Below, piece after piece: positions 603-49,117 of a stretch of DNA of 51,304 nucleotides. The DNA is taken from contig RSEE01000070.1 of assembly GCA_003971905.1 (NCBI GenBank), forward strand, positions 310,001-361,304, written 5' to 3'. Source of the stretch: Moniliella sp. 'wahieum' (lineage: Eukaryota). The notes under the pieces are model-generated. The model was not told the origin of the DNA. It saw only the letters and a list, made by a program, of their open reading frames with translations, and made no database searches. The position numbers were made by a program, and so were the translations under genes. How positions within the stretch are numbered: the first letter of the stretch is position 1; each line of letters begins with the position of its first letter.

Positions 603-681
603 AACGTTCAACGTTCAACGTTGAAGTTCAACGTTCAACTTGAACCTTGAACGGTTCAAGCTTCAAGCTTCAAGCTTCAAG
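603..681. repeat. 7-bp-period palindromic array (AACGTT+C/G then AAGCTT+C)
   Basis: aacgttcaacgttcaacgttgaagttcaacgttcaacttgaaccttgaacggttcaagcttcaagcttcaagcttcaag read directly. Confidence 0.95.
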
Positions 682-1061
682 GTGCGAGTGTTGGTATAGT
701 TGGAAGGGTACATCGAACATTGCGGCCGAGGGCTGTTGGCCAGCATATCTAGGTCGCTACAAACTCCACCCCATCTTCCCCACCACCACCTCTGTCCCCT
801 CGAGACATGCAATCTTGGTGGGGAGATGCACTGAGATACCTCCATCACATCATCCTCCCTGTCCACATGGATGGGAGAACCCTGACTATAGTGACTGTTC
901 AAGGCCCTATATTCTCCTTTTCATCATGCCTTCTTCAGTAGTGTCCCTCTCCTCAGATCCGCATTCTTCATTCTCTATTCCTCAGATTCTACGAAGGCAT
1001 CTTTTACCGCGTGTGAGTGAGTGAACCATCTCGTGAGCGAACCGAATTAAGCGGTGAGAGA

Positions 1062-1396
1062 TGTTACAGGATAGGAACGTTTGTATCCGTGACATAGTTC
1101 AGATACAATGCCTTGGATGGATGAGGAGAGTGCATAGTGAGGGTATGCTGGTAACGACGGGGACTGTACACTCGGGATGAGGAAAGAGTACTCTGCTGGG
1201 CATAGGAGATGTGCGATCAGAGATCTGAGATAAGGGGAAAGAGACGCAATCACGTGGTCCTCGTAACTGACAACTGGCAACAGGCACCCCCATGGCCAAC
1301 ACACCTCGCCTACACCACGTCCCACCCTACCCACTTCATACCAAAAACGGGAAACATGATATGCAAATAGCGAATCCATAGCCATCAATAGTTACA
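1062..1396 (-). mobile_element. probable LTR fragment (gypsy-like TGT...ACA ends)
   Basis: On the minus strand it starts TGTAAC (1396) and ends TGTAACA (1062). It is lower in GC than the flanking ORF and has a terminal hairpin at 1062-1094. No matching TSD. Confidence 0.35.
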
Positions 1397-2526
1397 TGGC
1401 CGGCCACCGAGGTTCTCGATCTCGGTCCCACCAGTGCAGTTCCCGTTGCGGCTGCGCTGACGTCTTCCACCATTCCGTAGGGCTCGATGGATCGCCCAAC
1501 TCCAATGGAGACCGGTACATCGTCATCCCGTTCCTCGTGACCTTCTTCCACTGGCTGCACGCCCCCCCCATTCCCATTCCCATTCCCCTTCCCCCTCTCC
1601 CTCCTACGCGGGTCCACCTCCCCACCCGCTCCGCTTCCAGTCCCTGGTCCCTTCCCGGGTCCCTTCCCGGTTCCCTTCCAGGTTCCACGTCCGAGTGCAC
1701 CGCCACCTCGGCTGCCGGTCCCACACACCACCCCGTACTCGCCTGCACATTCTCCGCCATCCGGGACAACATGCGATCGATCCGTTTTCGTGAAATGTGG
1801 CCTTGGGCGGGGGGGCGGTGACTCGTCCAGGCGGTGCGGCGGTGCGGGCAGTACTGGAGGACAGAGAGCCCGTCATGGTCATGGCCATTGTCATGCGGGG
1901 ACTGGTGGCACTGGTGGGAAAAAGGGTGCAGTCAGGCGGACGCGCTTCGAGCAGCCGCGCCAAATCCATTTCGTCCTCTTCCGTCCCTTCGGGTGCTAGG
2001 AACATGCGGGACCGCTCTCGTTCTCTTTCCTTTCTCTTTCTCGTTCCCGTTCCCGTTCTTTTTCTCTTTCTTTCGGAACGTCTCGTTCGCCCACCCGATC
2101 CAGACGGGGGTCCAGACGCGGATCGAGGCGGAGCGTGCGTCGGGCCGGACGCGGTCGTGCGTACGAAGAAAATACCTGCTGCAACGACCCGGCGCAATGG
2201 GCGATGCTCCCAGGCGCAGTGGACCAAGTGTAGGTCCAGCAGCGTGCAAGGGAGTGTAGGAGAAGTGGGAGAGGTGGGAGGGATGGGAAGGGTAGGAGAC
2301 CCCGTAGTGCGATCCACTCGAGCTGGGGACGAAGGCGAGGGCGAAGGTAAGGGCGATACCGATGGCGAGGCATGCGACTCGTAGAGTGCGGTAGGTGGCC
2401 AGATGATGTTATCCCAGAGAGACTGCCAAGCTGACCGCCAAGAGGGGAAGGCGCACCGGCTCGCACGTTTCGCTCGCTCTCACGTAGTCGGTCCCGCGCG
2501 AGACTGACGCCAGACGGCGGGGTCAT
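1392..2526 (-). CDS. hypothetical low-complexity protein (frameshifted), divergent from PEX16
   Basis: Overlapping long minus-strand ORFs (1996-2526, 1604-2317, 1392-1772) with a basic stretch RKRKRTGTGTRKRKERERER; no family recognised. Confidence 0.3.
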
Positions 2527-2778
2527 CGTCGTAAGGTAGTGGTGGTGGGATGACGAAGATGAGAAGGAAGCAGGGCGTAGATTGTGATGAAGTTGGGGTG
2601 GAGGTGGAGACGGTCGAGGTGGGGATGGAGGCTGGCGGTGGTGTTGATGGGTGGGGATGCAGGATGGGTCTCCTGAGTCTGAGCGCTGCTGATAATGCTA
2701 ATCTTGATCTCCGCGTGGGACGGGTGGTGGATGATCGCTGATCGCTGGTCGATGATGCGGGCCGCGACGAGGCACTGG

Positions 2779-2815
2779 AATTGAATATTGAAGCTTGAAG
2801 CTTGAAGCTTGAAGC
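2779..2815. repeat. 7-bp palindromic array (AATATT/AAGCTT+G) upstream of PEX16
   Basis: aattgaatattgaagcttgaagcttgaagcttgaagc. Confidence 0.95.
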
Positions 2816-4837: not shown

Positions 4838-6915
<2,078 letters not shown>

Positions 6916-6972
6916 TTCCTTGGCGCCCTCCCGAGGTTGGAAAGGATCGACCTTGTGATCATGGCACCCTGC

Positions 6973-7020
6973 GATCCTGAGATCCTACGATCCTGAGATC
7001 CTGCAATCCTGAGATCCTGA
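6973..7020. repeat. 8-bp tandem repeat (GATCCTGA x6, imperfect)
   Basis: gatcctga gatcctac gatcctga gatcctgc aatcctga gatcctga. Confidence 0.9.
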
Positions 7021-7527
7021 GCGCCCGAGGGATTGAGCGACCGAGTATCATGAACCTCAGCGATCCCAGTGGTTTGCTCTGATTTACCTCCCTTTCCTTC
7101 CCGCCCTTCCCACCCTTGTCTCCCTTCTATTCCCGTCCGTGTTCCGTTTGTCTCTGTGCTCTTGTACCGGATCCATCCATGTCCGTGCCCATGTCTATGT
7201 TTTGCTCGCATTTGACTTGTATGTATGTCACCATCGGGGATAGGCGAGGATGCGTTTAGAGCGGCGGATGGGGCAGCGGGCGAGGGGGATGGCCCCCACG
7301 TTAGATTTAGATGAGCGGGGAGGAGAGTGACTGATAGGGGGAAGGTGGCGGAGGTGGAAGTGAAGCTTGAAGTGGCGCCTGGCGCTCCAATTTCATTTTG
7401 CGCTGAGCTCATCCGGCGGCGTCGCCTTTTTAGCTGGAGGGCCACCTGGACCTGCCTCGCAGGCAGCCGCAGACGGGAGGGGCGCATCGCTGTCTGCGCG
7501 ACGATCTGCCCCGCCCCGCCGCCCGCC

Positions 7528-12287: not shown

Positions 12288-12310
12288 AATTGAACGTTCA
12301 ACGTTCAACC
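12288..12310. repeat. 7-bp palindromic array (AACGTT+C)
   Basis: aattgaacgttcaacgttcaacc in the divergent intergenic region. Confidence 0.9.
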
Positions 12311-12729: not shown

Positions 12730-12754
12730 TGCTCCTACGCCTCAGCGCATCTCT

Positions 12755-12831
12755 CCATCCTCCATCCTCCATCCTCCATCCTCCATCCTCCATCCTCCAT
12801 CCTCCATCCCCCATCCCCCATCCCCCATCCC
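12755..12831 (+). repeat. (CCATCCT)n/(CCATCCC)n heptamer microsatellite in the putative 5' UTR
   Basis: about 7 CCATCCT units followed by CCATCCC units. Confidence 0.9.
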
Positions 12832-12843
12832 CTCGTCTCCAAG

Positions 12844-24143: not shown

Positions 24144-25502
24144 GATTGCGGAACAGCTGATGGTGGGGTTAGGCCTTAGGGGGGGTGGTGTCGCAAGTTG
24201 AAATGCTCCACCTCACTGTTTGGGGTTCGGGGCTAGCCTCCAGTCCAGTTCCGCCGCTGGCAGTGATGCATGATGGGTGACCAAAACAGGTGACGACCAG
24301 GCCTGCTCTTTGAAACCGACATCTGGGACCGATTTTACCCCACAACTGTTTGCGCAAGCGACCGGGGGGTAGAGAGGGTAGCCTGAGGCAGTGTGAACCG
24401 CAAAACAACGGAGAGCACATATAAGATTGATGGCATCGCCAACGCCCGCATCTGGATCCATTAGCGTCCGCAGTTGGATGTATAGTGGCAAATTGTGTAT
24501 GAGTGGATGTGCACAGCGGATCCTCATGGGGGAGGACGGTCTTCCGATATGTCATTACAGTTGCCGTCCTATTAGACTCTTTTGTCGAAGAGGCCACAGA
24601 GCAGTCAACCCCCCGGCCTTAGCCACTGCCCCTTCGGTGTGGGTGTGACAAGGCCTCTGCCCCCGAAGGCAGACTGATCCGCCTGTCTTGGTGCATCTCT
24701 TCTTTCTCTGTTCATTTTCCCCAAACCAGTCTATTTTTTTGTTTGCACTACTCTCTCGGCTAATAGTACGCCCGACCCCTCAGGGCGTGCACACTCAGGC
24801 TCAAAAAAAAACGCCTTTCTCGTTCCCTTCCATGGTCCACTTGGCCGACCCCCCGGCTCTTGCTCATACTGTATGAATGCTTAATTCCTTTGATGATCCC
24901 TATGTGATGGCCACACTGGCAATCCTGGCCATCCATATGGGAACAAGCGGTATGCCAGAAGTGTGGCGGAGGCAGATGGACCGGTGTACCGCGGAGACAC
25001 AGACGCTAGGGGACGCTGGGAAGGATCCATGGTCGCCAGTCGCTGGGACCGAGATGAAGTTATAGTCTGGCACCCATGGGGCACTGGGGCCTACTGTGGG
25101 TACCGTGGAGCCCCGGCACATTACTACGTACACGGCTGGTTCTGGTTTGGCGTGGTCTCGGCCGCGAGGCGGAAGGTGTGGGCACGCCACCCGAACCACG
25201 AGGTTGCACATTGTCGCCCCAGAGCAGTGTTCACCCATGGTTCCGGTGCGATACGGCGAGGAGTTGATGACGAGGACGAAGCTGCGAGCAACGTGTGTTC
25301 CTCGACTCGAGTCAGGCACCTTGCGGTCCAGCAGTGTCCGGGGAAACGGGTTAACCTTAGCGTCTTTCCAAAGGGTCAGTTGGAAATTTGAAATGCAATG
25401 TTCTCGTCCTCTTTCTCTTGAAGCTTGAAGGAGCCAAATCGGCCATCCAAACCGGAATCCGAACCCGAACTGCCTCCGCGAAGGCGAAGAGAGCTGTCCC
25501 GC

Positions 25503-26902
25503 TGTCACATGTCACACCATGCATATCACACCTGACATGTGACATGCATGTGACACGGGATATTAGCGTGACTGGTATTTCCACTATTGAATGTTAATGC
25601 ATTGATGCAATGGATGAGTCGATGAGAAAGAGGATCGAGTCGCGTTGCTTTGGGAATGTTGGGCAGAGTTGAAAGATAGTGGCATACCGCGCGTATCAGA
25701 GCAAACCTGAGCGCCTGAGCAAACTTGAGCAAACCTGAGCAAACATGATGCATGAGCAAACATGAGCGCATGAGCAAACCCATATGGACCGACCCCTGCA
25801 AAGAGCACGTCCATGCGTCTCTCGTCAGCGCGTCAGGCAGGCCCCTCAGTTCAGTGCGCTCACCCGCTCAGCCGGGGCAGGTGGTCACCGGCACCGCCGG
25901 TCACCGGCCCGGCTAACTCTGGGACCTGAGGTCATGAAGGCGCTGGCGCACGATGCATAGCTGGTACTAGTGGTTCCTGAGGTACTAGCTTCTTCGTACT
26001 AGGTACTGAGGGTTAGGTACTAGGTACTGAGTTAATACGTTAACTACGTTAAACGTTAAACGTTAACTGCCGGTATGCCCCCGATGTGCGGCGGTGCCGG
26101 CGGTGACCCAGTGACCTCCTCGCACTGGTGCAACCAGCACCTGAGTCTGTAGCCGCACAACAATGCCATGTCCCACCCGCTTTACCTAGCTATGTCACAT
26201 GTCAGGCCGCAGGCCTCAGGGCCTCAATCGCCAGCTGCTGGTCGTTGTGCGGCTAGAAGGATGATCGATGATCGATGATCGCTGGGTTTGACCTGCTTTC
26301 TTGAGGTCTGAGGCCTGGCTGGGGGGCAGAGGTCTTCTCAGGGACACACCTGTCACTGTGACCTGGGCTACGTTGGCCCGTTTTGAGAGCTACGGTCAGT
26401 ACGTCAGTCGCGGCATCGCCCCAGTGTAGCTTTCAGGCTCGGGCTGTCTTGAGAAAGAGGGATGTGCGGGGACGTGGGGTCCAGGAGGGTGTGGGACCAG
26501 AAAGCTTGAAACCAACCATGCATCATGCATCAAACCAGTCTTGTGCTCTCTGGTTGCCCAATGCCCGCGAGCCTGTCCCTTTTCGTTCGAGTTTGAGCAA
26601 CTCTAGCCGGCAGTGCCTCGAGTTTCGACTCCGAGCTGCGAGCTCAGGCGCTCAGGCGCTCAGGCTTCCGTTGGCGCCAGGGCACTTGTGCCTCGGCAAC
26701 GGGTGATTATCCTATGTCTCGGCAGAAGACGTTCCCGGTGCACAACGACAAATCGGTCTCACCGGTTACACCTGTCACCCATGTCACGGCTCTATACTCC
26801 GACCCTCTTCTCCAACGAGGATGGGGGGGGGAGGGCGTGGGGTTGCTGTGGAAGGTTGAGACGTTGGGACCGAGGCCTGAGGCCTGAGGCCCTGAGGGCC
26901 TG
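25503..26902. repeat. dense cluster of palindromic 7-bp-type arrays with many different cores
   Basis: TGTCACA/TGTGACA 25503-25555; TGAGCAAAC-type 25699-25780; GGTCACC 25883-25907; GTAC and TAAACGT 25963-26067; GATGATC 26260-26281; CATCATG 26518-26532; TCAGGCGC 26642-26665; CCTGAGG 26872-26902. Confidence 0.9.
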
Positions 26903-30937: not shown

Positions 30938-32957
30938 TTACAAACCAAGGGCTTGGCGAAGGAAGGGAACGCCGAGGAAGCTCTCCAGCTTTCCGATCTC
31001 ACCGTTGAGCAGGGTGTTTTCAAGAACGTTCTCCAAAGCCGTAATGCCTGCACGAGGGAGAAAGGAAAATTCACAAGTAGGTCAGACTCACATGGTTCAC
31101 AGTATTGTCCCCGAGGCAGGGGTAGAAAATATAAAAACGTACCAATCTTGTCGTCAATGTTCTTAACAAGGTGCATGAGCTTCTGGAGCACACCATCCGG
31201 GAACTGTCCGTTGACGAGACCAAGCCCCATGTCGAGCTTCGTCAGGCCAGCATCCTGCTTGAGTTGGGCCTGCATACAATTGCGTCAGTAACCTATTGCT
31301 GTTGTGAAAACGAGAGGGAGAGACGGGTGGAAACGTACCAGAGATCCTCCAAGCTGAGCATCGATGGCGTCCAGGGCGGGAGTAATGCCGAGACCCTGCT
31401 CGATAAGGGCGACGACATGGCCAACGGTCTGGATCAAGCCAGGGGCAGGGGCGGTGGCCGGACTAGGGCCAGCGCTCGGGGAAGGTTTAGCGGCCGAAGT
31501 AGGGGCAGCGCTCGCAGAAGGTACGGCCGCCGAAGTAGGGGCAGCGCTCGCAGACGGCACGGGGGCTGAAGTAGTGCCAGCGGTCACGGAAGGTACGGCG
31601 GCCGAAGTAGGGACAGCGCTGGCGGAGGGTACAACGTCCGAAGTAGGGACTGCACTCGCGGAAGGTACGGTGACCGCGCCAGTGGGAGCGCTAGCGGTAG
31701 GTACGGCGGCCGAAGTTGGGACAGCACTCGCGGAAGGTACAACGACCGAAGTAGGGACAGCGCTGGCGGAGGGTACAACGTCCGAAGTAGGGGCAGCGCT
31801 CGCGGAAGGTACAGTGACCGCGCCAGTGGGAGCGCTAGCAGTAGGTACGGCGGCCGAAGTTGGAACAGCACTCGCGGAAGGTACGACAGCCGAAGTAGGA
31901 ACTGCGCTCGCGGAGGGTACCACGTCCGAAGTAGGGACTGCGCTCGCGGAAGGAACGACGGCCGAAGTAGGAACTGCGCTCGCGGAGGGTACCACGTCCG
32001 AAGTAGGGACTGCGCTCGCGGAAGGAACGACGGCCGAAGTAGGAACTGCGCTCGCGGAGGGTGCAACGTCCGAAGTAGGGGCAGCGCTCGCGGAAGGCAC
32101 AGTGACCGCGCCAGTGGCAGCGCTAGCGGTAGGTACGGCAGCCGAAGTTGGGACAGCACTCGCGGAAGGTACAACGACCGAAGTAGGGACAGCGCTGGCG
32201 GAGGGTACAACGTCCGAAGTAGGGACTGCACTCGCGGAAGGTACGGTGACCGCGCCAGTGGGAGCGCTAGCGGTAGGTACGGCGGCCGAAGTTGGAACAG
32301 CACTCGCGGAAGGTACGACAGCCGAAGTAGGGACAGCGCTGGCGGAGGGTACCACGTCCGAAGTAGGGACTGCGCTCGCGGAAGGAACGACGGCCGAAGT
32401 AGGAACTGCGCTCGCGGAGGGTGCAACGTCCGAAGTAGGGGCAGCGCTCGCGGAAGGCACAGTGACCGCGCCAGTGGCAGCGCTAGCGGTAGTACGGCAG
32501 CCGAAGTTGGGACAGCACTCGCAGAGGGTACGGCGGCCGAAGTAGGGACAGCGCTCGCGGAGGGTCCGGCGCCCGAGCCCGCACCAGCGCTCTGGGAAGG
32601 TCCAGCGGCCGAGGTAGAGCCGTTGCCCGCAGAAGGTCCGGCGCCCGAGCCAGTACCAGCGCTCGGGGAAGGTCCAGCGGCCGAAGTAGTGCCGTTGCCC
32701 GCAGAAGGTCCGGCGGACGAACCAGCGCCAGCGCTCGGGGAAGGTCGAGGGGGCGAAACAGTGCAATTGCCCTCAGAAGGTCCGGCGGACGAACCATCAG
32801 TGCCATTGCGGCGCTGCAAGTCAAACGTGTTGGTGATGTCGTACTGCAGCGTGTTGCGAACCATCATGTCGTTGCCCATCGAGGGGCGGTCCAGAGGAAT
32901 TGCAGTGGCAGCCGTGGCGGCAAGGACGGTAGCGAAGGCGACAGTAAATAACTTCAT
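30938..32957 (-). CDS. secreted Ser/Thr/Pro/Ala repeat protein with a duplicated amphipathic C-terminal domain
   Basis: signal peptide MKLFTVAFATVLAATAATA, LQRR dibasic site, NGT/NGS sequons, ~35 12-aa repeats; introns ~31271-31338 and ~31048-31143 give an end of ...GVPFLRQALGL*. Confidence 0.8.
31480..32745 (-). repeat. 36-bp coding minisatellite (VPSASAVPTSxx / VPTASAPTGAVT / AGPSxxxGxxSx)
   Basis: directly visible period-36 repeat. Confidence 0.95.
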
Positions 32958-33072: not shown

Positions 33073-33537
33073 CCCACACTTTTCTCACCTTGCTGGGATC
33101 TATGGCTGCTGATAGTCTTGCCAAGAGAAGCATCTGATCCTTCTGATGCCACGAAGAAGTACAGTACGATGTAATGATTAATGACTGATGCTACCCCCCA
33201 GATCACCTAACCATGTAATTCACATTCTTTCACGCTCTTCAACCCTTAATGGATCTCTGATCTTCTGATGTACCTGCCTGGCATTACCGGTATTATATAG
33301 AGCGGATTCAGTAATACTTTTATGTACTAGTACATGATGGCAGGTGGAGGAAGTGAGACTACATGCATTACAGAACCCCTTTTTTTCACAACATTGGTCA
33401 CCTATTTCCCTCCCGAACATCTGTGCCACTCTTATTGACAACCTCAATGCGGGGACAGAGCAATCCGCTCTGCGGAGGTACGGTTCCGAATATGGATGTC
33501 CAATGATCTGCTGATCTCGATGTGCCATGTGACCTTC

Positions 33538-33610
33538 TGTCACATGTCACATGTCACATGTCACATGTCACTGTGGTAACACTTTACGCGTTACGCGTTA
33601 CGCGCGTTAC
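33538..33610. repeat. 7-bp palindromic arrays (TGTCACA x~5, TTACGCG x3)
   Basis: tgtcacatgtcacatgtcacatgtcacatgtcac...ttacgcgttacgcgttacgcgcgttac. Confidence 0.95.
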
Positions 33611-34390
33611 TTCCGCGCAACCATTTAGTGATGTGACAAAACAAGGATAATCGATAAGAATGGCGAATGACTGGAATAGTCCTTTAAAAACAGCCATCGG
33701 CCTATACTGATACACCTTGTGATGTGCATTGTATCGGACGTACTCGCGTCTCACATCTTGCAGTCCAAGTCTCAACAGGTCTCAGATATCATCGATCATC
33801 GATCATCCCTTTTCTTTCTGTACTGTCCTTCTTCGGTCGATCTCGATGATGAATCATTAATCAAGCTTCAAGTTTCACGCTTCACGTCGCAGATCTCATT
33901 AACATAACAGCACCAGAAGCAGAGGCGCGTGCATCACAAGTAATGCCCTTTTCTAACCCCCGCGATCCCATAGACTGCGGGGTACAGCGGCAGCAGTGGG
34001 ACAGCCTAACAGTCTCCCGCTTCCTACTACAGTGTTCAAAGAAGGCATTACCTCTACATCATTTTGGGCATTGGATAAACACATTGAAAAATCGCTCCAT
34101 GAAGACGCACACGTCCGAGATATCATAAGGATGCACACTTCCTACTGTGGGCGACGAGTGCACGATCAATAGACTTCAATAGTCCCACCCAGAGCACGTT
34201 CACAGGCTCAGCTCAGATCCCGAAAGCGAAGACAGATTTTCACCACTGTTGCTCGTCTTCATAGTTACGCGCTAACGAAATGCAAAAACGCGTAACATGT
34301 TAACACCGATTGATAGTGATAGTGACAGTACCAGTGGTTGGCTCTCCATAGAAACTGGTGCTATATGTTTTCGCAAGGAGAGCCCACCAA

Positions 34391-34891
34391 AAGCTTCAAG
34401 GGGAGGATGCCATAGACGAAACTGAAAAAATGTGATAGGAGTGAGTAGGGTCTAAATTCTCATGAGTACCATGAGTGCATGAGAACTATTTGATAATCGA
34501 TCACTATGCTTGCACGACCAGCATGTTGCTCAATGAGATCGACATGGAAGATGAAACGATGGTGTGGCTTTAAGTACTACTAGACAAGAAGACCACCGGG
34601 CCTACGGCTCGGTCGTCAAGCTTCAAGCTTCAAGGGGAGGATGCCATAGACGGAACTGAAAAAATGTGATAGAGAGCGAGTAGGGTCTAAGTTCTCACGA
34701 GTACTGCGTACGTTGAACGTTGAGTACTGAGTACTGAGTACTGAGTACTGAGTACGAGTACTGAGTACTGAGTGCATGAGATCTGAGATCTGAGAAACTA
34801 TTTGATCATCGATCACCACGCTTGCACATCCAGCATGTTTGCTCTCTGGCTCGACATGGGAGATGAAAACGATAGTGCGGCTTTATAGTAT
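34391..34891. repeat. diverged tandem duplication (~190 bp copy 1 at 34391-34577; expanded copy 2 at 34618-34891)
   Basis: both copies share aagcttcaaggggaggatgccatagacg(a/g)aactgaaaaaatgtgatag...agtagggtctaa...ctatttgat...cagcatgtt...tcgacatgg. Confidence 0.92.
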
Positions 34892-35083
34892 TCAGGCATG
34901 TGTTCCCACATATACTTCTGTTTCAGCGTTGTCAAGGAAAGAACTCAATATCCTGACGGAGAGGCATGGTGCATCGATGGGAACTTGGCCCTCCTCCAGT
35001 GTAAGCGCCGTCGAGACGCGTCTCACTCGTCAATAAAGGTCGTCAACAGTGCCGATCCGGGAACGGGGGGATACATGATTCAT

Positions 35084-36476
35084 GATGATCGATGATCGAT
35101 GATCGATGAACTAATTCCCTGGTCTTTAAGCTTTAGTTGAATTGTTGGCTGGACCTGCTTGGTATTAGGGCCCGGCCCAGCGGTGGCCAGTTGTAATAAC
35201 GCGTAATGCATAACGTAACGCGTAACGCTCCAATAACAGGAAAAAGAACAGCGGAAAGAACAGGAGAGAACAGCAAAGGAACTGGTGGTCTCGATGATGC
35301 GATGATGCATGCCAGGGGTGTTAAGCTTTAAGCTTCAAGCTTCAAGCTTCGACATGGTGGCGAGGCCAAGTGTTGCGACGGTGACTGGCTTCACCGGTCG
35401 CGGTGCACTTCCGGCCTCAGGCCTCATTAATCATTAGCCCCGAGGCTCCGCGGGCTCCGAGGACTGCTGACGCGGCGTACTCGCGTAAGCCAACGACTAG
35501 TAGCCTTCTCCTGTAGCCCTGTCCTGCTTCCTACCACCAACGCCTATCTCTCGCCCGCGATCGATTGCCTACGCTACTGTCCAAAACGCTTCAGCATCCA
35601 TATCCATTGCGGTTGCCATAGCCGAGTGGACCAGGACGTCGCTACACAAGTCGGAATTGATGCAGATCTAGTGACCGCGACAGGACCACTGCGACATGTG
35701 ACCAGAACTGGCGAGAAACAATATCGTAAGTGCATCGCATACGGTACCACACTTCAAGCTTCAAGCTAACGTTCAACGTTCAACGTACTCAACCTCGGTC
35801 GACGGCGATCAACGCGCCACCGAGCGTGTTGTGCTGACGCGCTGACCATAAATGAGACCATAGGTCAACAAATATGAGTTCACGCGTTCACGTTCATGCT
35901 ATATTTTCCGACATTCCTGAGGCCTTGCATCTATCAAATGTCTGCCAGAGATGTGTTGCTATGCATGTTACATGCTACACTGAGAGTCATTTTATACGGA
36001 GAATGGGCCCATAATCACGAAATGATTGAGTGCGGGGTGTGATTGTGACAATTATGTAACATTTTTCTCTATGGAGAGCCTAGCCCACCACACTTCAATA
36101 ATTCTCTGGAAGATCCATAAAGAAGTGTGAAGCAAGAGTACTCATTGGAATCATAGTGTAGACACATTCCCCAGATTCCGCTTCTTTGATAATCGAAATG
36201 ATCTATGTGAGCTTAGCGCGCGCTTAGCGCTTAGCTGGGCTTGCCACCCAATTCGCTTTCTCTCTATGTCGAACTCGTTCTGTGGGTGACATGGTGACAG
36301 GCTGTGGTTATGTTTCTTTGCAACGGATCATGAAACGGAATTGCTATAATTAACCCTGTCCCAGCCTTAACCTCTGTCAATGATATGGATGCAAAAAGAT
36401 AGGCGAAACTGACAAGTAACGCGTATAACATGTGGATCTATCTTTGGTATATATGCATGATGCATGATGCATGATG
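35084..36476. repeat. cluster of 7-bp palindromic arrays
   Basis: GATGATC 35084-35109; TAACGCG/TAATGCA 35197-35227; AAGCTT 35321-35350; CCTCAGG/AATCATT 35413-35437; AAGCTT/AACGTT 35752-35793; GCTTAGC 36211-36235; ATGCATG 36453-36476. Confidence 0.9.
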
Positions 36477-39267
36477 GCCGAGGGACGTGTTGAACTATCG
36501 AACGGTTGAATTTCTCCATCGCTATACGGTGGAATACGGGGACCAAGTTGGGGCTAAAAGCTAAGTGAAGCCCCGACAATACCAGTCTTACACAATGGCC
36601 CTCAGATCATGGTCATCTCGTGTAATGTTCTAAAAGAGTCGGATATATTGATGGAAGCCCGAAAGCGCCGATGAACACGACTATGACACCTCCTAAAATC
36701 GAGGTTCTAGACCCGTGGACTACACAATTCCATTCAATATTCACAGTCCATATCATATGCGAAACGCTTTGGCTGGACAAAGGAGACACACCGCATGGAC
36801 GCCATACTGGTGTAGTGGCGCCGGTAGCCCCACAAGTCCGGAACCTTCGGGTTCATCGTTCACGTTCATTCCGTGCAATATTCCATCCTGGCGGACAGGA
36901 ATATTCGCTAGCCTCTGTAGCTCATGCATCATGTGCAATGCAATACATACCAACTGCCTGTTCTCTGGTCTAAACACCGTGCCCGCCAGACCGCATATCG
37001 GGTATTCTGTAACCATATCATTTACAGAACTGAAGGCTGTGTGGGACAAAGAAACGCAGCGCTAAACTGATCTGTTCGTCCAGCGTGCGTTGCTTGTTAG
37101 CGTTAGCGCCATCCCGTTTAAGGAACCGCAGGGGAAACACCAGGATATCAGGACCCTCTGGTGCCCGCCATCCGTTCCCATACCCGAGGATGCGCATTTG
37201 GATACGGATGAACGCGGTAGACATCCGAACGGTGAACCATCTCCATTGAGGCTCGCAGTCAATTCCTTCCAGTTCCCAAGCACCTAACCTGCTGTATTGG
37301 TGGCATAGTATCCTCGCGTCGTCAAAACCAACGGGAAAACGATTCTTGGGTACGTCCCTGGTACTTGGCGTTCTTGTCGCATTCTGTTTGTTCCAGCAGC
37401 CGAAGTAACTCAAAGGTGTCGCGGTGCTTTCATATACCACCACGCGGTACGCAGCTTGTACCTCCTGTGTTCCCGAGTCGCAAACACCTCCGCGCCTGAT
37501 TGCTCCAGGTCCCATCACGCGATAGTCAGTGTGTATTGCCTTCCTCCCACGCCTCGCCTCATCCTTTTCCTCCACAGTGGGCTCGTTGTGGACGTGGTTG
37601 TCAGGGATGGAGGCACGAGCTGTGGAGAAGACTCCCGCACTACCTCAGCAATGCGCCAAAATTGTGGACTGTGTGCTGGTGCAAGCCACGATGTGCTCGA
37701 GCGAGGACATGACGCCACACTTGCACATGTTGCCCGTGGAGCGCCACAGCGTGCGGACCTGGAGACCAACCTCTACCTGATTGTCGGGAGCCGGAGGCAC
37801 GGGGCTGATGGAATTGAGGAGAGCCGAATGTGGCTCGGGTTGTTGTGCTCGACCACATTGTGACCGACGGCATCGTCAAAAGCTTCTGGAGCAGTAGTAG
37901 TTGTCGGCTCTTCTACCACATCCTCCGAACAGCGCTGGCGTTGCTTCGTGCTTGCGTTCTCCGTCAGCGTGCGTGCTCCAGATCGGTCAATATAACTGTG
38001 GTTCGTTGACCTCGTTGGCCGCAGCAGTGCGTGGGGCGCAATATAACGAGTAAAGCCGGCTGCGGCATCCTCCTCTCAGAAAAGGCAAGCTGATGAGCAT
38101 GTCGGAATGGTCGTCCTTTGTACCTTGGGATCCTCGTCGCCCTGGATCCGTCTGAACACCGTGCAGATGAAGTATATATACTGCAACCGTCCCGTTCTCC
38201 TTCCAAAAAGTACACCAGGCCATCAGCACGACGTCGTAGAACGATCAGAAAACCTGGTGGCTCCCACCACTCTCCAAGCTATATGTGGCACCAGAGTGTA
38301 TGTGGATGAACGTTGCGGCCCGAAAGCGATGAATTCGAGGGATCTCTCCAAACGAACTAGATCTTTTCTCACCTATATAGCATTTTCCTTACCGTGGTGG
38401 TCAAGTGATCTGGGGTGCTTCCTTGTGTTGGAGAGGAGGGCAGTGCTACCTGACATTCGCACGCCAGCACCTTCCTCCTTCCGCAAAATGAAATGAGCAT
38501 CGTGACAGGCATTATCAAATGCTTACATAATGAGAGCCCGTTGGCCCGCTCGGGAGAGCGGCAGGGCGATGGAGATTGAATATTGACGGGTTTCCCACGC
38601 CAATACGTACATTTCAAAACCGCCGTCCCCCGAACTTGCGCAGCGCAGTTGGTCCTAGCGGGCCATTCACTCGGCCCTTTCAGCTCCACAGCACGCAGTA
38701 TTGCGCCCGTTGCAGGTACGCACGCCTCTCCTTCCACCTCTTCTCGCCCATGTTGCGCCGTCGGCAGCCGCCACCGCAGCCGCCCCGGGCACCTCATCCC
38801 CCTGATGCAGAGCCAGCGGCGGAGCCAGATGCGATCCCCCTTCGACCCCTCGGCCGCTCCAGTGGCGTGGACAATGCCCCTGCTCCTACCCGGCCACCAC
38901 CGACGGCGATGGCGAGCAGGGGCCGCCTTTGCCACAGGACGACGCCTTGGGAGAAGAGTGGACGTGGGAGACGTTTCCCTTCTCGGACATTCTCGCTGCT
39001 TCCTTTGACGGCTTTGCGAATCCAATCGCCCCAACCAAGGCGACCAGGATGAATGGGAGTGGGACGTAAGGCGGTACACTGACCCTTCGCCGTGTTGTGG
39101 GTCATTGTCTTTCTCGGCTTTGTCTTTGGGTTTTCCCACAGGTTACTTTCCCCCTTCTTGGCTGGACCTGGCGACACACTCTTGGCTACCCCTTTCAACC
39201 CGCCTTCAATCTCTCCGCCCCGACCAACAGCAACGTTTCCCTCTCCCCCTGCACTCTCCCGCGCGCA

Positions 39268-39757: not shown

Positions 39758-41799
39758 TTGTCACGCCAAATCTTTGGACACGGCCGGGGGGGGGGTAGCA
39801 CGGGATGCCTCACTTCTTGAAAATCCAGTCGCTTCTGGCTTTGATCTCGTTCATATGCTCTGTCTGAGCCCTCATTTGAGTCGAGCCGGGCGCCCTGATT
39901 GGTTTCATCATCCATGCCACCCTTGCGTGCCCCCGGCCTCATTGTCCAAGCCCACTATGCATTTTTTGCCACAGTCCACTTATCTTGCACTCGACCTGAT
40001 GAATTCCCCAGTGCTGGTGGACGGACCCAGCAGCATGGAAAATGCATCCATTGATATTGTCCATACTCTCCAAACTAGTTGTGGTCTGCCTGGGCGATGG
40101 TGATTGCGTGGCACGTGATGCGTGGTCGCAGCAGTCCCGCTGGATGAGTTCCTGGTGGAGTTTTACCTGGTGATGTGACCGGATCCCGATGCCAAGCGAG
40201 ACAGCAATCAAGAACTGGGCCAATAGACGATAGGGATTGATTGCTGGTGAGCGATAGTAGAGAGTAGCGGAGAGGGAGGAGGAGGAGGGAGTGGAAGAGG
40301 GAAAACTAAGAGCTACGACTGCCGGGGCTGCTAGATAGGAGGCCAGTCAGCCAGCCACATTTCCGCCCGAGCGGAACTAGCGGAGCTAGCCGCTGGATTG
40401 AAGTGGCTGGGAGCGCCAGAGTCCGGCTATGCCTTTGGCACACCGCACTAGTGTCCCAACACTGGCCTAGTATAGCCCTCTCAGATCTCATTGTTCAGTG
40501 TGGTGATGCACCGTTTGCTAGAGTGCGACTTGGGCACTAGCGATCCTATGGATCAGCTGCAAAGCAGCGTTCAGACAAGGCGCGAAGGCAAAGTGGTGAG
40601 CCACCCAAGTCTTCAAAAGCAACGTTTGAAGGGATAAGGAGACAGGAGGGAGAAGGGAGATGGAGCGAGCAAGGCGTGCGCGGCCTGCGAGCGGAATTCT
40701 TCCGCAGCGAGCGTCACCGATCTACTGAGGGCCGTGCAGGGGAATCCTAGCACTAAGTACCCTCTAACACCATTCGCTGGTACCACGGTCGTCATAGCTG
40801 GCAATGAATAGCCTGTCGTTTACCCAACTTAATCGATAATCCTGCATCGGTTTTGCGATTTGCTCTTTTTTTGCCAGCCCCCAAGCCCATTAGGTGCGTT
40901 GTAGCAGGGCTTGGATCCGTTCCAGGTCGCCATTATATGGATCGATCCGGCGGATGTAATTTAGCATCCACAGTGTGGCAGTTCTATCCACAGTCTCCAG
41001 CAAATTCATTTGGGTACTAACCGGCCACCTGTCAGTATGGTCCCCGGCACATTCGCCTGGACTCGTTCTGTCCGCGCTCCTCGTTCTCTATGCGACCTTC
41101 GATCACATTCTGCTGCTGCCTACCGCACCACGCCTCCTTACCCCCCACCGCCCCCCACACCCCCCCAGGCCCGCATCGCAACTGTTCAGCTGGCGTCCAC
41201 GTTTGCCTCCCTAAGTCAAAGCGCGGCACGCATCCAAAATGCGGCATGCGTCCAACAACTTCTCCAGAACGCCGCCGTCTCCCAGCCAGGGCAGGCCACC
41301 TTGCTTGCCCTTCCGAGATGGCGCTAGTTAGCTACAAATCTCAGGTTCTGCACCGATCGAATCTGTCCTCGAGTCGATCTCTACCGATGCTCTGCGTCTT
41401 CCAATGAACCGGCCTTGTCACTTGCCCGGAAGTTGACCACGGGCTGCGGACGCTCGGCGTTCTTGTCTCTCTTCCCTCACCGTTTTGCCTTATCGCCCTT
41501 GACTCATCCGATCCTGTCTTTGTCCTTTTGACAGCTCGGCTATAAACGCAGGCCAGTGCCGGATTCACTCCTGGATGGATTATCGATTATCGTCCATTTC
41601 CCTCATCTCGTTCTTGGTTGTCTGGTGAGGAGCCACACTTAAGGGATCAAAACTCGTTTATGGTGCAGGGCCATATATGTCAATAACAAAATAACAATGA
41701 CGAAAGAAGAGAAGCACAAGTTGAGTATAGATTGAACGGCGTAGAACTGTAAGAACTTGTTGGAGCAAGGTGTATTAACATATTGTAGTTTAGCACTTT

Positions 41800-43646: not shown

Positions 43647-44118
43647 TGGAGTGTGGCTGTGAGCGAGGCGTCGCGGGGCAAAGCACGTTCGACTATATAT
43701 CGATGGAGGGCTGGCTGGTACTACGGTGCGGGCATCAAAAGGGAGGGTTCACAAGAGCAGCTGCTGCGGAGACGAGCTGGATGTGAGACGTCAGTATGTA
43801 CATACCTTGCGAACCAACGAAGGGCGTGACAGTGCCGAGTCCCGATTGGCTGGGCCTCTGCTGGGGCTGCGCACTACCGCAGTCGGATGTCTCGGCGTGC
43901 AGCGCCGGACGCACCGAGACGCTCGGCGCAGCCGCGCAGTGTCCGGCACTGGGCGCATTGCTGGGGCCGATGTCGAAGCCGAGGGAGGGCGAACGGAGGT
44001 GCCTGGACGTGCTTGGCGCTGGAAGGACTACAAACACAGGTCAGATGTGCATCGACGGTCGACACAGCCGCCCTGCCGGCGAATAAGGCGCCTAAAAAGC
44101 CAGGAACAAGAGGCTACG

Positions 44119-44445
44119 TCATGCATCATGCACCATGATGCATGAAGGGGGGCTCAGAAACGAGATAATAGGACTCTCACAGCACTTGGACGCACTCGGT
44201 GTAGTCCTGACTAGTGACTTTTAGCGGTTAGCGGAATAGGGTCCTTTGCGCCTCAGTGCCTCAGGGCGCCTTCTCTATTAATTAGCGCTTATCGAATATC
44301 GGTTATCGGTTGCCAATTATATCTCGATTGCTTGGGCATGGCGCAACCCCCCTGTTTTTCTTCCCCGGAGATGGGATGGAATACTGAGCACACGGTGTAC
44401 TTGACTCCTACAGGCGTCAGGCTGACGCCTGAGGTAATTATAATT
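44119..44445. repeat. 7-bp palindromic arrays upstream of the protease
   Basis: tcatgcatcatgcaccatgatgcatga; tgactagtga; ttagcggttagcgg; ttagcgctta. Confidence 0.75.
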
Positions 44446-45734
44446 CTCTGACAGGCTGAGTTTCCCACCATGATTCAAGCCAGCTGCCGACTATGAAGAC
44501 AATGCCAAGCAGTTCTGATTTCTATAGTTGTACTGCCCGGTTTCACGTCGGGCCGGTAAGTGTAAGCACATGGGTGATGTGACGTCAACCCAAAGGCAAA
44601 AGATCGCGGAGGCCAAGTGAGCACATCCCACTATATATACTGACACCATATAATGTCTTGAAGCCTTTTAAGGCGTGGACAACGAAACACTGCGCCTATA
44701 AACCGGCCTGCTCACCCACAGCCTGTGTGTTGCTTGCTGGTACCAAACCCGGTTAGGAAACGAGAGGACCGCACGGCTGCGGACTTTGTATATGAAATTT
44801 CCATGTTCTGTGGCTCTTAGGGTTTAAAGCATGTTGTTTTCCTATATGGGACATTAATTCCTTAGTGTTTTCCCAGAATCAGCGCCGTAGCATTCATCTA
44901 TTTGCCAGTATAGTGCATCCGCTTGGAAATATCCATAGTGAGAAGGCAGAACCTGGGGGAAATAGTGAGGAAAAGAGAGGCTCGAAGTGGAAATCGAATC
45001 CATGAAACCGCCGATTGTGGTCAGGGATGCATTACCATGACTACGCTATCGAGCCGCGATAGTAGGAGCAGCTGTAGGATCACAAAGTCTCCCCTGCGAA
45101 AGCACAAACCAAAAGGGTAGAAGGCGAACAAGGCAGACAATCTCCTCCACTGTTATTATAGCTTGCATGCTAGCTACTAATATATCAGCGCCACTGATGT
45201 TCCAGTGCTCGACTATATACCCAACAGAGAGAGTCTTGTCTTCGTCGCTGGTGGTCGATACACCTGCTTCACAGTTGATGCAGCATTCCTATTCAGACTC
45301 TTCATCTTAGTTGGTAGCGTCCAAAACAGATGCGTGGGACGGGGGAATGGTCAGCGTAATGAGCCTACGCCGTCTCGCGCCCTCCTGGCGGAATGATGAA
45401 GGAGCAGCACCCACAGCAGCCCGGCGACGTTGAGCTATAACTTGGATCGTGTGTCGACATCGCGCTGCTCTGTGCTCGCTTGTCCCAGGCGCAAATCGAG
45501 GTTGCCGTGGCCATTTGGAGGGGTTTTCAATGCGTACTCCCCCAGGACATGCTTGAGATGTGCAACGTGCCGATGAATATAGTACCGATTCAAACCAAGA
45601 TTTGGTTGATGCCGATGGCTTTTGAAGTAACGTATCCTCTGTCAGGCAATGCACGCGCGGTTAGCCTCGAGCAACCATTGAATCGCCAAATGCTTTGCGG
45701 AGGGGGAGTGCCAAGCGTTCGTTTGGCCCTGATC

Positions 45735-46511
45735 TCAGCCAAGCATTGAGCGCTCAGATTCGCTGCACCGGGGGGGCAAGGCAATTGCACGAATCCGCCG
45801 TTTCTTCCAGCTTGCCCAAGTCGCGAACAGAGAGGATACGCACGTCCAGACTGGTGGATCCGAGAGGGTAGCGGTCAACAGGCTTGCCACCTGCACCTCT
45901 GTCACGCCCCATCCCTCGTCGACAGGAAGCAGCTCCAGAAGGACATAAAGAAGACCCAGAGCTGAAGCCTTCTGTTCCTGGCTACCCTGTTCAATGTGCT
46001 GAATCAAACTTGGGACCAGCTGGGGCCACGCACCATCCGCCAGCTCAACAAATCGCCCCGACCACCTGGGCCACCCACGAGCGCAGATTCGAAGGCAGCG
46101 ACGCTTCTTCCACTGGCAGCCAGACGAAGTAGCCTGACTTTCATGCCCTCCCGCATATCGGAAGACAATGTGGACCATGCTTCGGGCACGCGTTTCTGTA
46201 GCCCCAACGCAGCACTTTGCCGCACACCATCTTCGGGAGCCTCGATCAGGATCTGGTACAACGCAGGCACCAAGGCAGGGTCGCTGGCCAGCGCGCCCAA
46301 TCCCTCCTCCGCCGCCTTGACTGTGGCAGTGTCGGGTGGAGTGTCTGGCCGAGCAGCGAATGCATCGCCACACGTACTCGGGAGCCGCAGCCGTGATGAG
46401 AAGAGGCGGGACGACGGTGCCAGGAGGCGGACCGAAAAAGTCAAGTCGGCAGGTGTTGTTGTTTTCTGCCGGCTGCCCAAAAAAAAAAAAAACACACTCA
46501 CCAATTGACAT
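45735..46511 (-). CDS. N-terminal fragment of an importin-beta (Kap123/importin-4-like) protein; truncated or pseudogene
   Basis: ATGTCAATTG|GTGAGT intron, then PDTATVKAA...VPALYQIL...DGVRQSAALGLQKRV...WPQLVPSL HEAT repeats; similarity appears to be lost after ~45780. Confidence 0.7.
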   Translation of the reverse strand: MSIGECVFFFFGQPAENNNTCRLDFFGPPPGTVVPPLLITAAAPEYVWRCIRCSARHSTRHCHSQGGGGGIGRAGQRPCLGACVVPDPDRGSRRWCAAKCCVGATETRARSMVHIVFRYAGGHESQATSSGCQWKKRRCLRICARGWPRWSGRFVELADGAWPQLVPSLIQHIEQGSQEQKASALGLLYVLLELLPVDEGWGVTEVQVASLLTATLSDPPVWTCVSSLFATWASWKKRRIRAIALPPRCSESERSMLG

Positions 46512-46736
46512 TTCTGTCTAACAGTTTACCTCCAGTTTTTAGTCGCGCCTGGCTTAATTTACCCTGTCTGTGCTCAGTCATCCAAGTCATCGCAGGCCAC
46601 CGCCGACATCATTTTAGCGACTCGCCTCGGACATCTCGGCCCTCTCCTCTCCCCACACCCTCCACCGTTTGTGCCGGCGTACATGTCGGCCCATTCTAAT
46701 ACATTCATCATACCTTCTGGAAACAGAGAATCACAA

Positions 46737-48602
46737 TCAAAGCTTCGCTTTTTGAGCCTCCGCCTTGAGACGGTCACGCAAAACACGATGCAGGATCTTG
46801 CCCGAGGGCTACAGCAAGCCAAGACAACCGCGAGTCAGTCCCCCCGCGTATTCGCCTCACCCCAGCCATGGAATACAAAAGACGTACCTCTTTGGGATTG
46901 CTTCTATGATCTTGACTCCACCTTGAAGACGCTTGTAGTGTGCCACCTTGCGATCGACGAACATACGCGTCTCAAGACCTAAGAACATTTCGTCCTTGAC
47001 TCGGGTTTGGGTACAATGAATGCCAGAGGATACTCGGTTGCCTTCTCCTCCACCACTAGGGGGACAACGGCACAGTCAGCCACCTTGTGGAAACTGAGGA
47101 TGATTGCTTCGAGCTCGGCTGGAGCCACTCTGAATCAAGAAAGGTTAGCATCCACACAAAGAGCAGATTTGCCCTCACACATTCTCTCACAGAAGCGTGC
47201 AAGGGCAAAATGTGACACGAGGAAAAAGGAAACGTACTGTCGGCCTCCTACCTTGATGAGATCCTTTGATCTCCCCGACAGGTACACCTCTCCCTCCTTG
47301 ACATAGCCTAAGTCTCCTGTACGGAACCACCCATCATGGAAAGCATCTCGCGTAGCTTCAGGACTGTTCAAGTAGCCCATAAACACATTGGGCCCACGAA
47401 TCCAAATCTCCCCTTCCAGCGTGGCCCCATTCACTCCTTTTCCCTCTGTGAATCCCACATCCTTCCCACTGTCGAGTTCAACCAAGCGAAGCTCAATGCC
47501 AGGGAGAAGACGACCAGAGCACGATGGATTCTCCTTCATATCGGGACCAAACGATGTCTTGCTCAGGGCGATCGATGTCTCGCTCAGCGCATACCCCTGG
47601 CCTATCTTGACCCCCAGACGAGACCGCACTTGATTCGCTAGCTCCCCCGACAGAGGTGCCGCCCCACAGAGAATGTACTTGACAGAATAGGTCAAACTGG
47701 TCCAACAAGGGCTCTTGGCCAGCAGCACCATGACGGGTGGCACGGCAGCAATGTAAGTAATTTTGTGCTGCTCAATCGCCTGCCCCATCTGGACCAAGTC
47801 AAACTGACGACCGATAATGGTGGGGGAACCAGAACGGAACGCACGAAAGATGAACATGATCAACGCATAACCGTGGTACATCGGCAAGTTGCATAAATAC
47901 CGCTCCTCCCCTAGGGGAGCCCTGATTCGAGCATGACCAAGGCAGCACTTAGGTGCGGTGGGAAAGAAGTGTACCCTTCATGCGCCCTGTGGTGCCCGAC
48001 GATGAATGATCGCGGCCGCAGTGGTCTCGGGAGAGGGAACTGGATGGACCGGCAGCACTTTCGTTGGTCCAGCACGTGCGCAAGTCCTTCTCCCCTTGGG
48101 GCCCTGATGTCATCGCCTCCTCGTCAGATAACAGCCAGACTGTTTGGCTCTCCGTGGCCTGGGGGTGCTTTGCCATCTCCAACCAGCCCGGACTCGTTCC
48201 AAACCCTGGCTCGCAGGAGAAGCCACAACATACTGACCTTGGCATCGGCAAAAGGGTGGCTAAGCTCTTCGGCGACTAATGCAGTGCCAATGGGGACAGG
48301 GACGACACCAGCAACGAGACGGGCGTGGATCAGAACGGGATACCAGATCGAGTTGTCGCATACAATCGCAATTGTCTCGCCGGGAGCAAGACCCAGGGTG
48401 TGCCGCAGGGCATGGGCCAGCTGATCGGCCAAGGCGATCACTTGCCGTACTGCAATGTCTGGCGGCCATCGAGGGTGGTGAAGACGGGCGCGTCAGGGGC
48501 TATCTCGTCCCGACCGGAGCGGAGCAGGTGCACCAAATTTCCTTCGGGAAGGGGCGGCAGCTCCTGAGGCGAACGCAAGATCTGGGGGGAAAGGGCGGCC
48601 AT
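46737..48602 (-). CDS. 4-coumarate-CoA-ligase-like AMP-dependent acyl-CoA ligase, peroxisomal (PTS1 AKL)
   Basis: SSGTTG, LPMYHGY, GQGYALSET, GEIWIRGPNVFMGY, GWFRTGDLG, GRSKDLIKVGG, ends KILHRVLRDRLKAEAQKAKL*. Confidence 0.92.
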
Positions 48603-49117
48603 GGGGGAGCAAGAAAGGGGCAGAGATTTGGTGAGGCTGGGGGAGGGAAGTGTGGAAGGAGGGGGCGAGAGATTTATTTTGGTTGGGGCAAAGACTGCTC
48701 TGATTGTGGAGCGTCGCGAACCAACGTCCAACGCTTAACAGCATCCCTGAATGCTCGCTGATCCGCATCTCTCACGAACTATAGTCTTTTTGGTTGGGAG
48801 AATAGGATGGAGGAGCCCCACAAGTTGCGACAAGCGAAGAGGAGGGGACAACAAGCAGCTTCACACACCCCGCGCAAATAAATGGCCGTGGTGGGGTTAG
48901 CGCAGCAGCCACGCGGGGTAAACATATTACGTACGCTGTACGTTCGGACTAGGATGTGTGCCCACACGAACTAATCATTAATTAGGTTGGCCCCGTGCAA
49001 TGACCAAGCGGCAACTGCGGGTGGGGACGAGAGGGGCCAATTTCCGCTCGCAGCCAGAGCTGATGAGACCTGGAGTCCGGATGGTCCTCGAGGGTGATGC
49101 AATCGCACTGATGGTGG

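Follow-up and report, generated by a model that had tools for sequence, protein, structure and literature searches.

We analysed a stretch of 51,304 nucleotides from the genome of Moniliella sp. 'wahieum' (contig RSEE01000070.1, positions 310,001 to 361,304 of the forward strand; hereafter the window, numbered from its first letter), which carries short arrays of palindromic heptamers in its non-coding DNA. The window has a G+C content of 57% and contains eukaryotic genes with short introns. Pfam matches among its open reading frames (ORFs) include Pex16, a C2H2 protein, a YAK1-like kinase, PIGA, Trm732, prefoldin and COG2, together with an amino-acid transporter, UPF0047, an aspartyl protease and an AMP-binding enzyme. 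The kinase ORF is most similar to a sequence from Tilletiaria anomala (79% identity), with further basidiomycetes next in rank; this one protein places the source among the basidiomycetes, probably in the Ustilaginomycotina. Period-7 arrays are numerous in the output of Tandem Repeats Finder. A preliminary description of this DNA had proposed that such arrays share one grammar, in which a palindrome of the form A-x-y-y'-x'-T (primes marking complementary bases) is followed by one spacer base, placing T-N-A every 7 bp. We find that this A..T palindromic heptamer pattern is real and lies far beyond chance.

Exact period-7 runs of at least 14 bp number 42, and in 31 of them the unit is an A-x-y-y'-x'-T palindrome plus one base, while none is built on a C..G, G..C or T..A palindrome. 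The remaining 11 runs are non-palindromic; by eye, about six are purine/pyrimidine low-complexity sequence and about five are one mismatch away from an A..T palindrome. When placed at 7-bp spacing, A..T hexamer palindromes form 25 chains, 8 of which have at least three units, compared with a mean of 0.40 ± 0.62 (maximum 4) in 200 dinucleotide shuffles. The same spacing yields one chain of T..A palindromes, one of C..G and none of G..C, and spacings of 6 and 8-12 bp yield 0-3 chains. Among 10-mers of the form TNA-N4-TNA, the N4 is palindromic in 84 of 156, against 6.25% expected by chance and 3-4.5% in the control frames GNC (12/300), CNG (9/269) and ANT (5/112). This comparison of frames had been proposed in the preliminary description, and its outcome is decisive. 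Fifteen of the 16 possible A..T cores occur in full TNA context, spanning positions 608-48984. AAATTT is absent, as had been noted, but ATATAT, which had been called unseen, is present once at 45178. The base between chained units is C in 16 cases, G in 15, A in 4 and T in 3. Because 15 different hexamer cores are used, the arrays do not resemble an array of sites for one transcription factor.

We grouped exact period-7 tracts according to their length. The A..T class stays at background level at 10 bp (17 tracts, compared with 11-16 for the other end types) and at 11 bp it is near background (6 compared with 0-4), while at 12 bp it accounts for 18 of 66 tracts, with 0, 1 and 4 in the remaining end classes. 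At 12 bp in length, the founder product reads TNAxy-y'x'-TNAxy, that is, a 5-base direct repeat beginning with TNA and parted by the reverse complement of its final two bases, with x and y copied from the flank and N retained. This phase (7 tracts) or its reverse complement (9 tracts) is found in 16 of the 18 A..T tracts of 12 bp. Where a 12-bp tract has a terminal TNA, its 2-nt filler is reverse-complementary to the TNA-distal repeat end in 16 of 19 cases, whereas a filler of this palindromic (P-like) kind occurs in 7 of 47 tracts lacking a terminal TNA, which is the chance level. The ends of longer period-7 tracts are likewise non-uniform in phase. Rejoining at TNA microhomology, as suggested in the preliminary description, predicts the 10-bp tracts rather than the 12-bp ones, and does not agree with this distribution.

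An apex test, in which TNA plus k bases is followed by the reverse complement of those bases and then by TNA and the same k bases, gives 104 matches at k=2 compared with 0.23 in shuffles. At k=0 there are 64 matches against 57.6 expected, at k=1 there are 5 against 3.4, and k=3, 4 and 5 give 1, 2 and 0; the frames ANT, CNG and GNC give 0-1 at k=2. The two TNA copies share their spacer base N in 73 of 84 cases and have complementary bases there in 4 of 84, and therefore the second TNA is a direct copy and not a product of fold-back. Self-complementarity is made de novo from arbitrary flank bases and is a product of the process, not its precondition. The earlier picture of a process that keeps self-complementarity across cores thus gives way to the conversion of TNAxy into TNAxy-y'x'-TNAxy.

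What is duplicated is a 7-mer with TNA at its centre, pqTNAxy, and 0-2 palindromic (P-type) bases join the copies. We arranged the junctions in a grid as U + P(a) + U minus b bases, where U is the TNA-centred 7-mer, and counted 104 junctions of type (2,2), 14 of (1,0), 12 of (2,1) and 1 of (2,0), compared with 0.05, 0.05 and 0 in shuffles for the first three. A TNA-centred 7-mer repeated after one base is found in 8 of 18 period-8 tracts, and in 7 of these 8 that base is complementary to the adjoining 7-mer end, as in GGTGACA t GGTGACA and GTTCACG c GTTCACG. Judged by eye, pq and xy are not complementary to each other in most of these 7-mers. Whole duplication is thus also found for TNA-centred 7-mers that are not palindromic, for example CTTGAAC CTTGAAC at 639, and the 4-nt palindromic core is doubled at 25538-25555 (TCA-CATG-CATG-TCA) and at 36211-36228 (TTA-GCGC-GCGC-TTA).

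We parsed chains of TNA-centred 7-mers joined by a palindromic 4-mer into odd palindromes (O) and hybrid units pqTNAxy (H). An architecture with at most one hybrid unit, (pqTNAq'p')m-(pqTNAxy)-(y'x'TNAxy)n, fits 49 of 56 chains, of the types OH (17), HO (16), O only (12) and OHO (4), with the O units deriving from pq on the left side and from xy on the right. The other seven chains are hybrid-only, and their spacers are mostly unequal and background-like, as by chance. O-only chains make up 12 of the 49, compared with 1 in 16 expected of random targets. The architecture is seen in ATTGAAT-ATTGAAG-(CTTGAAG)3 at 2780, CCTCAGG-CCTCATT-AATCATT at 35415 and AATCATT-AATCAAG-CTTCAAG at 33852, and it explains the in-register switching of cores in the preliminary description, whose examples at 35197, 35413 and 2782 read as it had given them.

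A tandem duplication of about 234 bp of non-coding DNA (34389-34860) allows two paralogous copies to be compared. They are an estimated 8% diverged in the aligned core and differ mainly at the heptamer arrays. Copy A reads GCATGAGAAC where copy B reads GCATGAGA-TCTGAGA-TCTGAGA-AAC, so that TGAGA stands against TGAGA-tc-TGAGA-tc-TGAGA, and no filled site is seen in this pair. The difference fits two rounds at the target CATGAGA, though loss in copy A may instead be its cause.

Some loci consist of single events, such as the founder event AGTGAAG-CTTGAAG (7359-7372), AATGATT-AATGACT (33173-33186) and ATTGAAT-ATTGACG (38575-38588), or of pairs of them, as in ATTCAAT-ATTCACA with GCTCATG-CATCATG (36732-36933) and TCTCAGA-TCTCATT with CTTAATC-GATAATC (40479-40841). 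At 24167-24283, GGTTAGG-CCTTAGG is followed by AGTGATG-CATGATG and then GGTGACC, the latter forming the sole 'double odd palindrome' junction (24262-24283). Other short arrays are (GTTAAAC)2-GTTAACT with spacer A (26046-26066), CATCATG-CATCAAA with an ATGCAT core (26517-26532), CGTCAAG-(CTTCAAG)2 (34614-34634), (CATGATG)3 (36453-36476) and (GATTATC)2 (41578-41592). TGTCACA-TGTCAGG and (GATGATC)3 share the stretch 26193-26281, and (GATGATC)3-GATGAAC and CTTTAAG-CTTTAGT the stretch 35084-35137. ATTGAAC-(GTTCAAC)2 at 12289-12309 has spacer G first and C afterwards. At the model locus just upstream of the Pex16 ORF (2780-2815), where N is G throughout, the order is left odd palindrome, original hybrid 7-mer and right odd palindromes, and the same order of odd palindrome, hybrid and odd palindrome is found at 35413-35435.

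Compound loci combine several of these forms. The array at 603-681 has AACGTT units with spacer C and then G, the doubled CTTGAAC (639-652, non-palindromic), and then GTTCAAG (CTTCAAG)3. The cluster at 25417-25775 holds two copies each of CTTGAAG and TGTCACA, CCTGACA-TGTGACA with the core doubling at 25538, CATGATG-CATGAGC, and two period-8 events, CCTGAGC g CCTGAGC and CATGAGC g CATGAGC. An irregular 8-10-bp repeat on TGAGC (TGAGCAAAC and TGAGCGC units) lies at 25699-25779 and mixes the TNA grammar with another motif. At 33538-33604, (TGTCACA)4-TGTCACT is accompanied by CTTTACG-(CGTTACG)2, which ends in a CG slip variant. The locus at 33646-33888 contains GATAATC-GATAAGA, TATCATC-(GATCATC)2, the odd palindrome, hybrid and odd palindrome AATCATT-AATCAAG-CTTCAAG, and TTTCACG c TTCACG, where one P base is gained and one base lost at the junction. 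Copy A of the tandem duplication carries CATGAGT ac CATGAGT (34461-34476), a full 7-mer, two P bases and a full 7-mer. The longest locus (34710-34817) reads GTTGAAC-GTTGAGT-(ACTGAGT)4, a 1-nt deletion and (ACTGAGT)2, and also includes CATGAGA-(TCTGAGA)2 and GATCATC-GATCACC. A mixed chain, AATAACG-CGTAATG-CATAACG followed by (CGTAACG)2, occupies 35195-35228. At 35292-35350, a period-8 tract, CGATGATG in 2.1 copies, stands with TGTTAAG-CTTTAAG-(CTTCAAG)2, where a T spacer gives way to C. At 35752-35892, (CTTCAAG)2 and (GTTCAAC)2 are parted by a register break, and the period-8 event GTTCACG c GTTCACG lies at 35878. At 36211-36299, GCTTAGC units with the doubled GCGC core are accompanied by the period-8 event GGTGACA t GGTGACA. 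Further period-8 forms are a CCTGAGAT-like variant array of period 8/16, TGA plus GATC plus one additional base (6968-7021), the array (GCTCAGGC)3, a TNA-centred 7-mer plus one P-type base (26642-26665), and (CCTGAGG)2 followed by the junction CCTGAGG c CCTGAGG (26872-26897). Finally, CGTCATG-CATCATG, CATGATG-CATGAAG and CCTGACT-AGTGACT (44117-44219) lie beside the 5' end of minus-strand aspartyl-protease ORFs.

After merging, 1 of 40 array loci touches a Pfam-supported ORF stretch; such stretches make up 22% of the window and represent a partial gene map rather than a gene model, and the binomial chance of at most 1 of 40 is about 6e-4 (hand calculation). This agrees with the earlier remark that the arrays are missing from coding sequences, while the clustering upstream of genes claimed with it is supported only roughly, with loci densest in the ORF-poor stretches at 25.4-26.9 kb and 33.1-36.9 kb. 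The 4 kb at 33073-37017 have no stop-to-stop ORF of at least 150 codons, show the lowest G+C content of the window (49-51%) and contain 23 of the 56 chains.

The window has several other features. A broken copia-type RVT_2 match on the minus strand (50243-50802, Pfam), split over two frames, belongs to an apparently degenerate element that extends past the window end. At 31452-32745, about 36 copies of a 36-bp unit form a repeat that also shows higher-order periodicity at 72 and 144 bp. Several of its frames are open on each strand, and it may therefore be a gene whose product has repeats of 12 residues; its sole Pfam match is a weak one to DUF2288. A run of 19 G lies at 171-189, and a 39-bp unit is present in 2.1 copies at 5042-5124, within very C-rich DNA (70% G+C) in or near the C2H2 gene region. 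Scans of the window for tRNAs and against Rfam gave no matches.

How might such scars be written? We propose, with a probability of roughly 0.5, that a cut-and-paste DNA transposon, absent from this window, left the arrays as serial excision footprints. Two copies of the 7-mer are kept and each inner end looks like an opened hairpin, which fits a 7-bp target-site duplication followed by excision through flank hairpins. From the observed geometry we infer the element itself, the hairpins, the nick site, the ligation and the repair route. The element would insert at sites centred on T-N-A and duplicate 7 bp, pqTNAxy. On its exit both flanks would become covalently closed hairpins, each of which would be nicked at a distance of 2 nt from its tip, on each strand immediately 5' to the T of TNA. 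The resulting 3' overhangs would be 4-nt palindromes, with the sequence xyy'x' at one flank and q'p'pq at the other. Flush ligation of both ends would then give a heteroduplex, from which replication would produce one daughter with pqTNAxy-y'x'TNAxy and another with pqTNAq'p'-pqTNAxy. Segregation of the heteroduplex strands would account for both mirror forms, which were seen in 7 and 9 of the 16 founder tracts. At an odd-palindromic target the overhangs could anneal and the 7-mer would be cleanly doubled, whereas blunt joining of both filled overhangs could give the doubled 4-nt cores at 25538 and 36211, and partial mismatch correction would yield the one 'double odd palindrome' at 24262-24283. 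Each scar would be a new perfect palindromic TNA-centred 7-mer, and re-use of the site, probably together with replication slippage or unequal exchange, would extend the array in register. Insertions of 7 bp, which break the reading frame, would be purged from coding DNA.

Several observations weigh against this proposal. We looked within the window for elements bounded by inverted termini of 11 bp or more and by a 7-bp duplication centred on TNA; there were four candidates, none of them TNA-centred, and no transposase domain was found among 219 window ORFs scanned against Pfam. The major junction is far more uniform than experimental footprints of hAT elements, and our search of the literature turned up no other 7-bp duplication in which positions 3 and 5 are strictly T and A. 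A density of 49 loci in 51 kb would require the element to have been extremely active in the past. Slippage explains arrays of up to about 8 units, and period-8 repeats of an imprecise junction (26642-26665 and 6968-7021), more easily than repeated identical repair does. The locus at 35195-35228, with three hybrid units, falls outside the simple architecture. In our own tally of the founder tracts, A or T directly follows TNA on the palindromic side in 13 of 16 and at the mirror position in 5 of 16, a one-sided bias that a symmetric target does not predict.

Other excision and repair geometries were considered and rejected. A footprint made of the element's terminal bases (TNA + 2 + 2 + TNA) would give 10-bp tracts, which do not rise above background, and x and y correspond to flank bases. 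Symmetric opening of a 5-bp duplication carrying P bases would, by reasoning, give TNAxy-y'x'-Axy, which is not the product seen. A 3-bp duplication of TNA predicts TNATNA, the k=0 class of the apex test, which is not in excess, and the other apex distances (k=1, 3, 4 and 5) fail likewise. Fold-back or snap-back copying predicts a complementary spacer. The preliminary description had listed a fold-back process beside a break and hairpin process with a hairpin-forming transposase as candidate; the former falls with the 4 of 84 complementary spacers, and the latter is the best fit to the data.

A bolder version, which we offer as a tentative possibility, is that the agent is undescribed, either a new transposon lineage or a transposase-like enzyme kept by the host, with an absolute requirement for a T-N-A-centred, 7-bp-staggered target and a near-invariant outcome of hairpin repair. 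Such an agent would act often in open non-coding DNA and would write most period-7 repeats of the genome. It would also be self-reinforcing, in that each scar would be a better target than the site it replaced and arrays would grow by positive feedback.

A host enzyme might also act with no mobile element involved. Here a domesticated transposase-like nuclease or a topoisomerase would cut T|N on both strands of TNA, so that TNA is broken in open DNA, the ends are capped as hairpins and repair writes a 7-bp insertion. The strict requirement for TNA, the fixed geometry, the uniformity of the major junction and the lack of an element within the window would all suit such an enzyme. However, two full copies of the 7-mer are retained, each ending at a hairpin tip, as expected of an insertion duplication followed by excision, and a single break would have to be staggered by 7 nt, filled in and only then capped with hairpins, a route with more ad hoc steps. 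Double cleavage at the TNA centre with two hairpins, which we rejected, predicts adjacent odd palindromes of both flanks, pqTNAq'p'-y'x'TNAxy, a form seen in 1 of 30 same-spacer, non-palindromic TNA-N4-TNA sites. We regard the host enzyme as unlikely.

Ordinary microsatellite growth, in which hairpin-aided replication slippage alone creates and expands the arrays, is improbable. Period-7 slippage does occur here, as shown by the non-palindromic microsatellite (CTCCATC)8 at 12753-12809, the period-8 arrays repeat an imprecise junction, and longer arrays fold better than shuffles (z = -4.6 and -4.3, two arrays). Yet slippage cannot make y'x' beside an arbitrary xy, and it should leave an arbitrary phase where 16 of 18 founders fall into one mirror pair. 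Moreover, C..G, G..C and T..A palindromes, which are equally or more stable, are at background, enrichment is confined to TNA frames, and short arrays show no folding advantage over shuffles (z about -0.2, two arrays). Slippage as the sole cause is thus contradicted, while the period-8 arrays and (CTCCATC)8 point to slippage or unequal exchange as an amplifier. The surrounding repeat at 12748-12832, (CATCCTC) in about 12 copies passing into (CCATCCC)4, is C/T-rich, lacks TNA and lies just before a long plus-strand ORF. The arrays are a mutational signature, as the preliminary description had held, and not the sites of one transcription factor or the outcome of plain slippage.

Selection for cis-regulatory or cruciform-forming promoter elements, palindromic by function, is very improbable. 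The arrays do lie in non-coding DNA, several of them by gene starts (2780-2815 before the Pex16 ORF and 44117-44219 before the protease ORFs), but the 15 cores differ, the bases are copied from whatever flanks TNA, the two paralogous copies differ in array content, and frame disruption alone explains the absence from coding DNA. Predicted single-strand DNA folds of five arrays are weak (-4.7 to -14.3 kcal/mol), and are uninformative for short arrays; nothing we found supports the cruciform selection raised earlier. A sequencing or assembly artefact deserves almost no credence, as the pattern is sequence-specific, confined to non-coding DNA and repair-like in its logic, and carries point mutations and 1-nt deletions inside arrays (34755/34756).

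If serial transposon excision is the right explanation, the sequence grammar records thousands of transposon visits even with no element remaining, and the choice of target (T-N-A), the stagger (7 bp) and the hairpin opening (2 nt) can be read directly in a non-model basidiomycete. Mobile elements would then also have a concrete route for seeding promoters with microsatellites and perfect palindromes, which could there alter regulation and DNA stability; under the bolder version, the route would be a self-reinforcing generator of palindromic microsatellites in promoters. The grammar is easily searched in other genomes and predicts features of the responsible element.

The statement in the preliminary description that no named system follows this rule was too strong, since target-site duplication with P-nucleotide footprints is a named phenomenon. 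TNA-anchored palindromic heptamer arrays, or footprints stacked in this way, are not described in the literature that we searched, which left most subscription journals outside its coverage; a paper on Microstromatales telomeres (PMC13234504) is unrelated, as judged by a term search.

In V(D)J coding joints the hairpin is opened 2 nt from its tip, leaving a 4-nt self-complementary overhang, which is the same geometry of hairpin opening as is needed here. V(D)J joining is a vertebrate somatic process with heterogeneous trimming and additions and no target duplication, and in the lack of a target duplication it differs from these arrays. The 3-bp duplications of PIF/Harbinger and IS5-type elements read TNA or TWA and thus share the T-N-A trinucleotide, but they predict TNATNA, which is at background (64 compared with 57.6), and the unit here is 7 bp. 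The 3-bp length of the PIF/Harbinger duplication is given in the accessible part of PMC12730594.

P-type excision is not, to our knowledge, known to use flank hairpins. Galileo, an element of the P superfamily in Drosophila, resembles the present case in its 7-bp, odd-palindromic duplication consensus GTAGTAC, but this has an A-N-T centre and fixed outer bases, where the sites here have a T-N-A centre and free outer bases (PMC2775673, accessible part). MULE and Transib elements are hairpin-forming cut-and-paste transposons, as stated in the available text of PMC5499845.

Among the 8 bp of the usual hAT target, position 2 is preferably T and position 7 preferably A. The unit here is 7 bp and does not match the canonical 8-bp hAT duplication, but a 7-bp hAT lineage, hAT7, exists. 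In the sections of PMC12730594 available to us, 7-bp duplications in Basidiomycota are reported for hAT7 (Pucciniales) and for Kyakuja transposons (Laccaria and other Agaricomycotina). These are alike in being Basidiomycota DNA transposons with 7-bp target-site duplications, and differ in that those sections give no target preference, describe no footprint arrays and report none of these elements from Ustilaginomycotina; no homologue was found in the window. The Agaricus element ABR1 is termed hAT-type in the accessible text of PMC10051438.

The closest likeness is to hairpin-type excision footprints. Excision of Ac/Ds in Candida albicans leaves P-nucleotide footprints through flank hairpins, for which the available part of PMC5873905 discusses Pso2 and microhomology-free joining by Lig4; there, 128 excisions gave 28 kinds of footprint. 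The arrays differ from these in the 7-bp duplication, the strict T-N-A centre, the one dominant junction (104 matches), the stacking of scars into arrays and an element not seen in the window. As in such footprints, both copies of the target duplication are retained, P nucleotides at the junction are centred on the flank ends and no microhomology is needed. Thus, the arrays would join two known phenomena, transposon target duplication and hairpin footprints, in what appears to be a new T-N-A-centred, 7-bp variant that is stacked in arrays.

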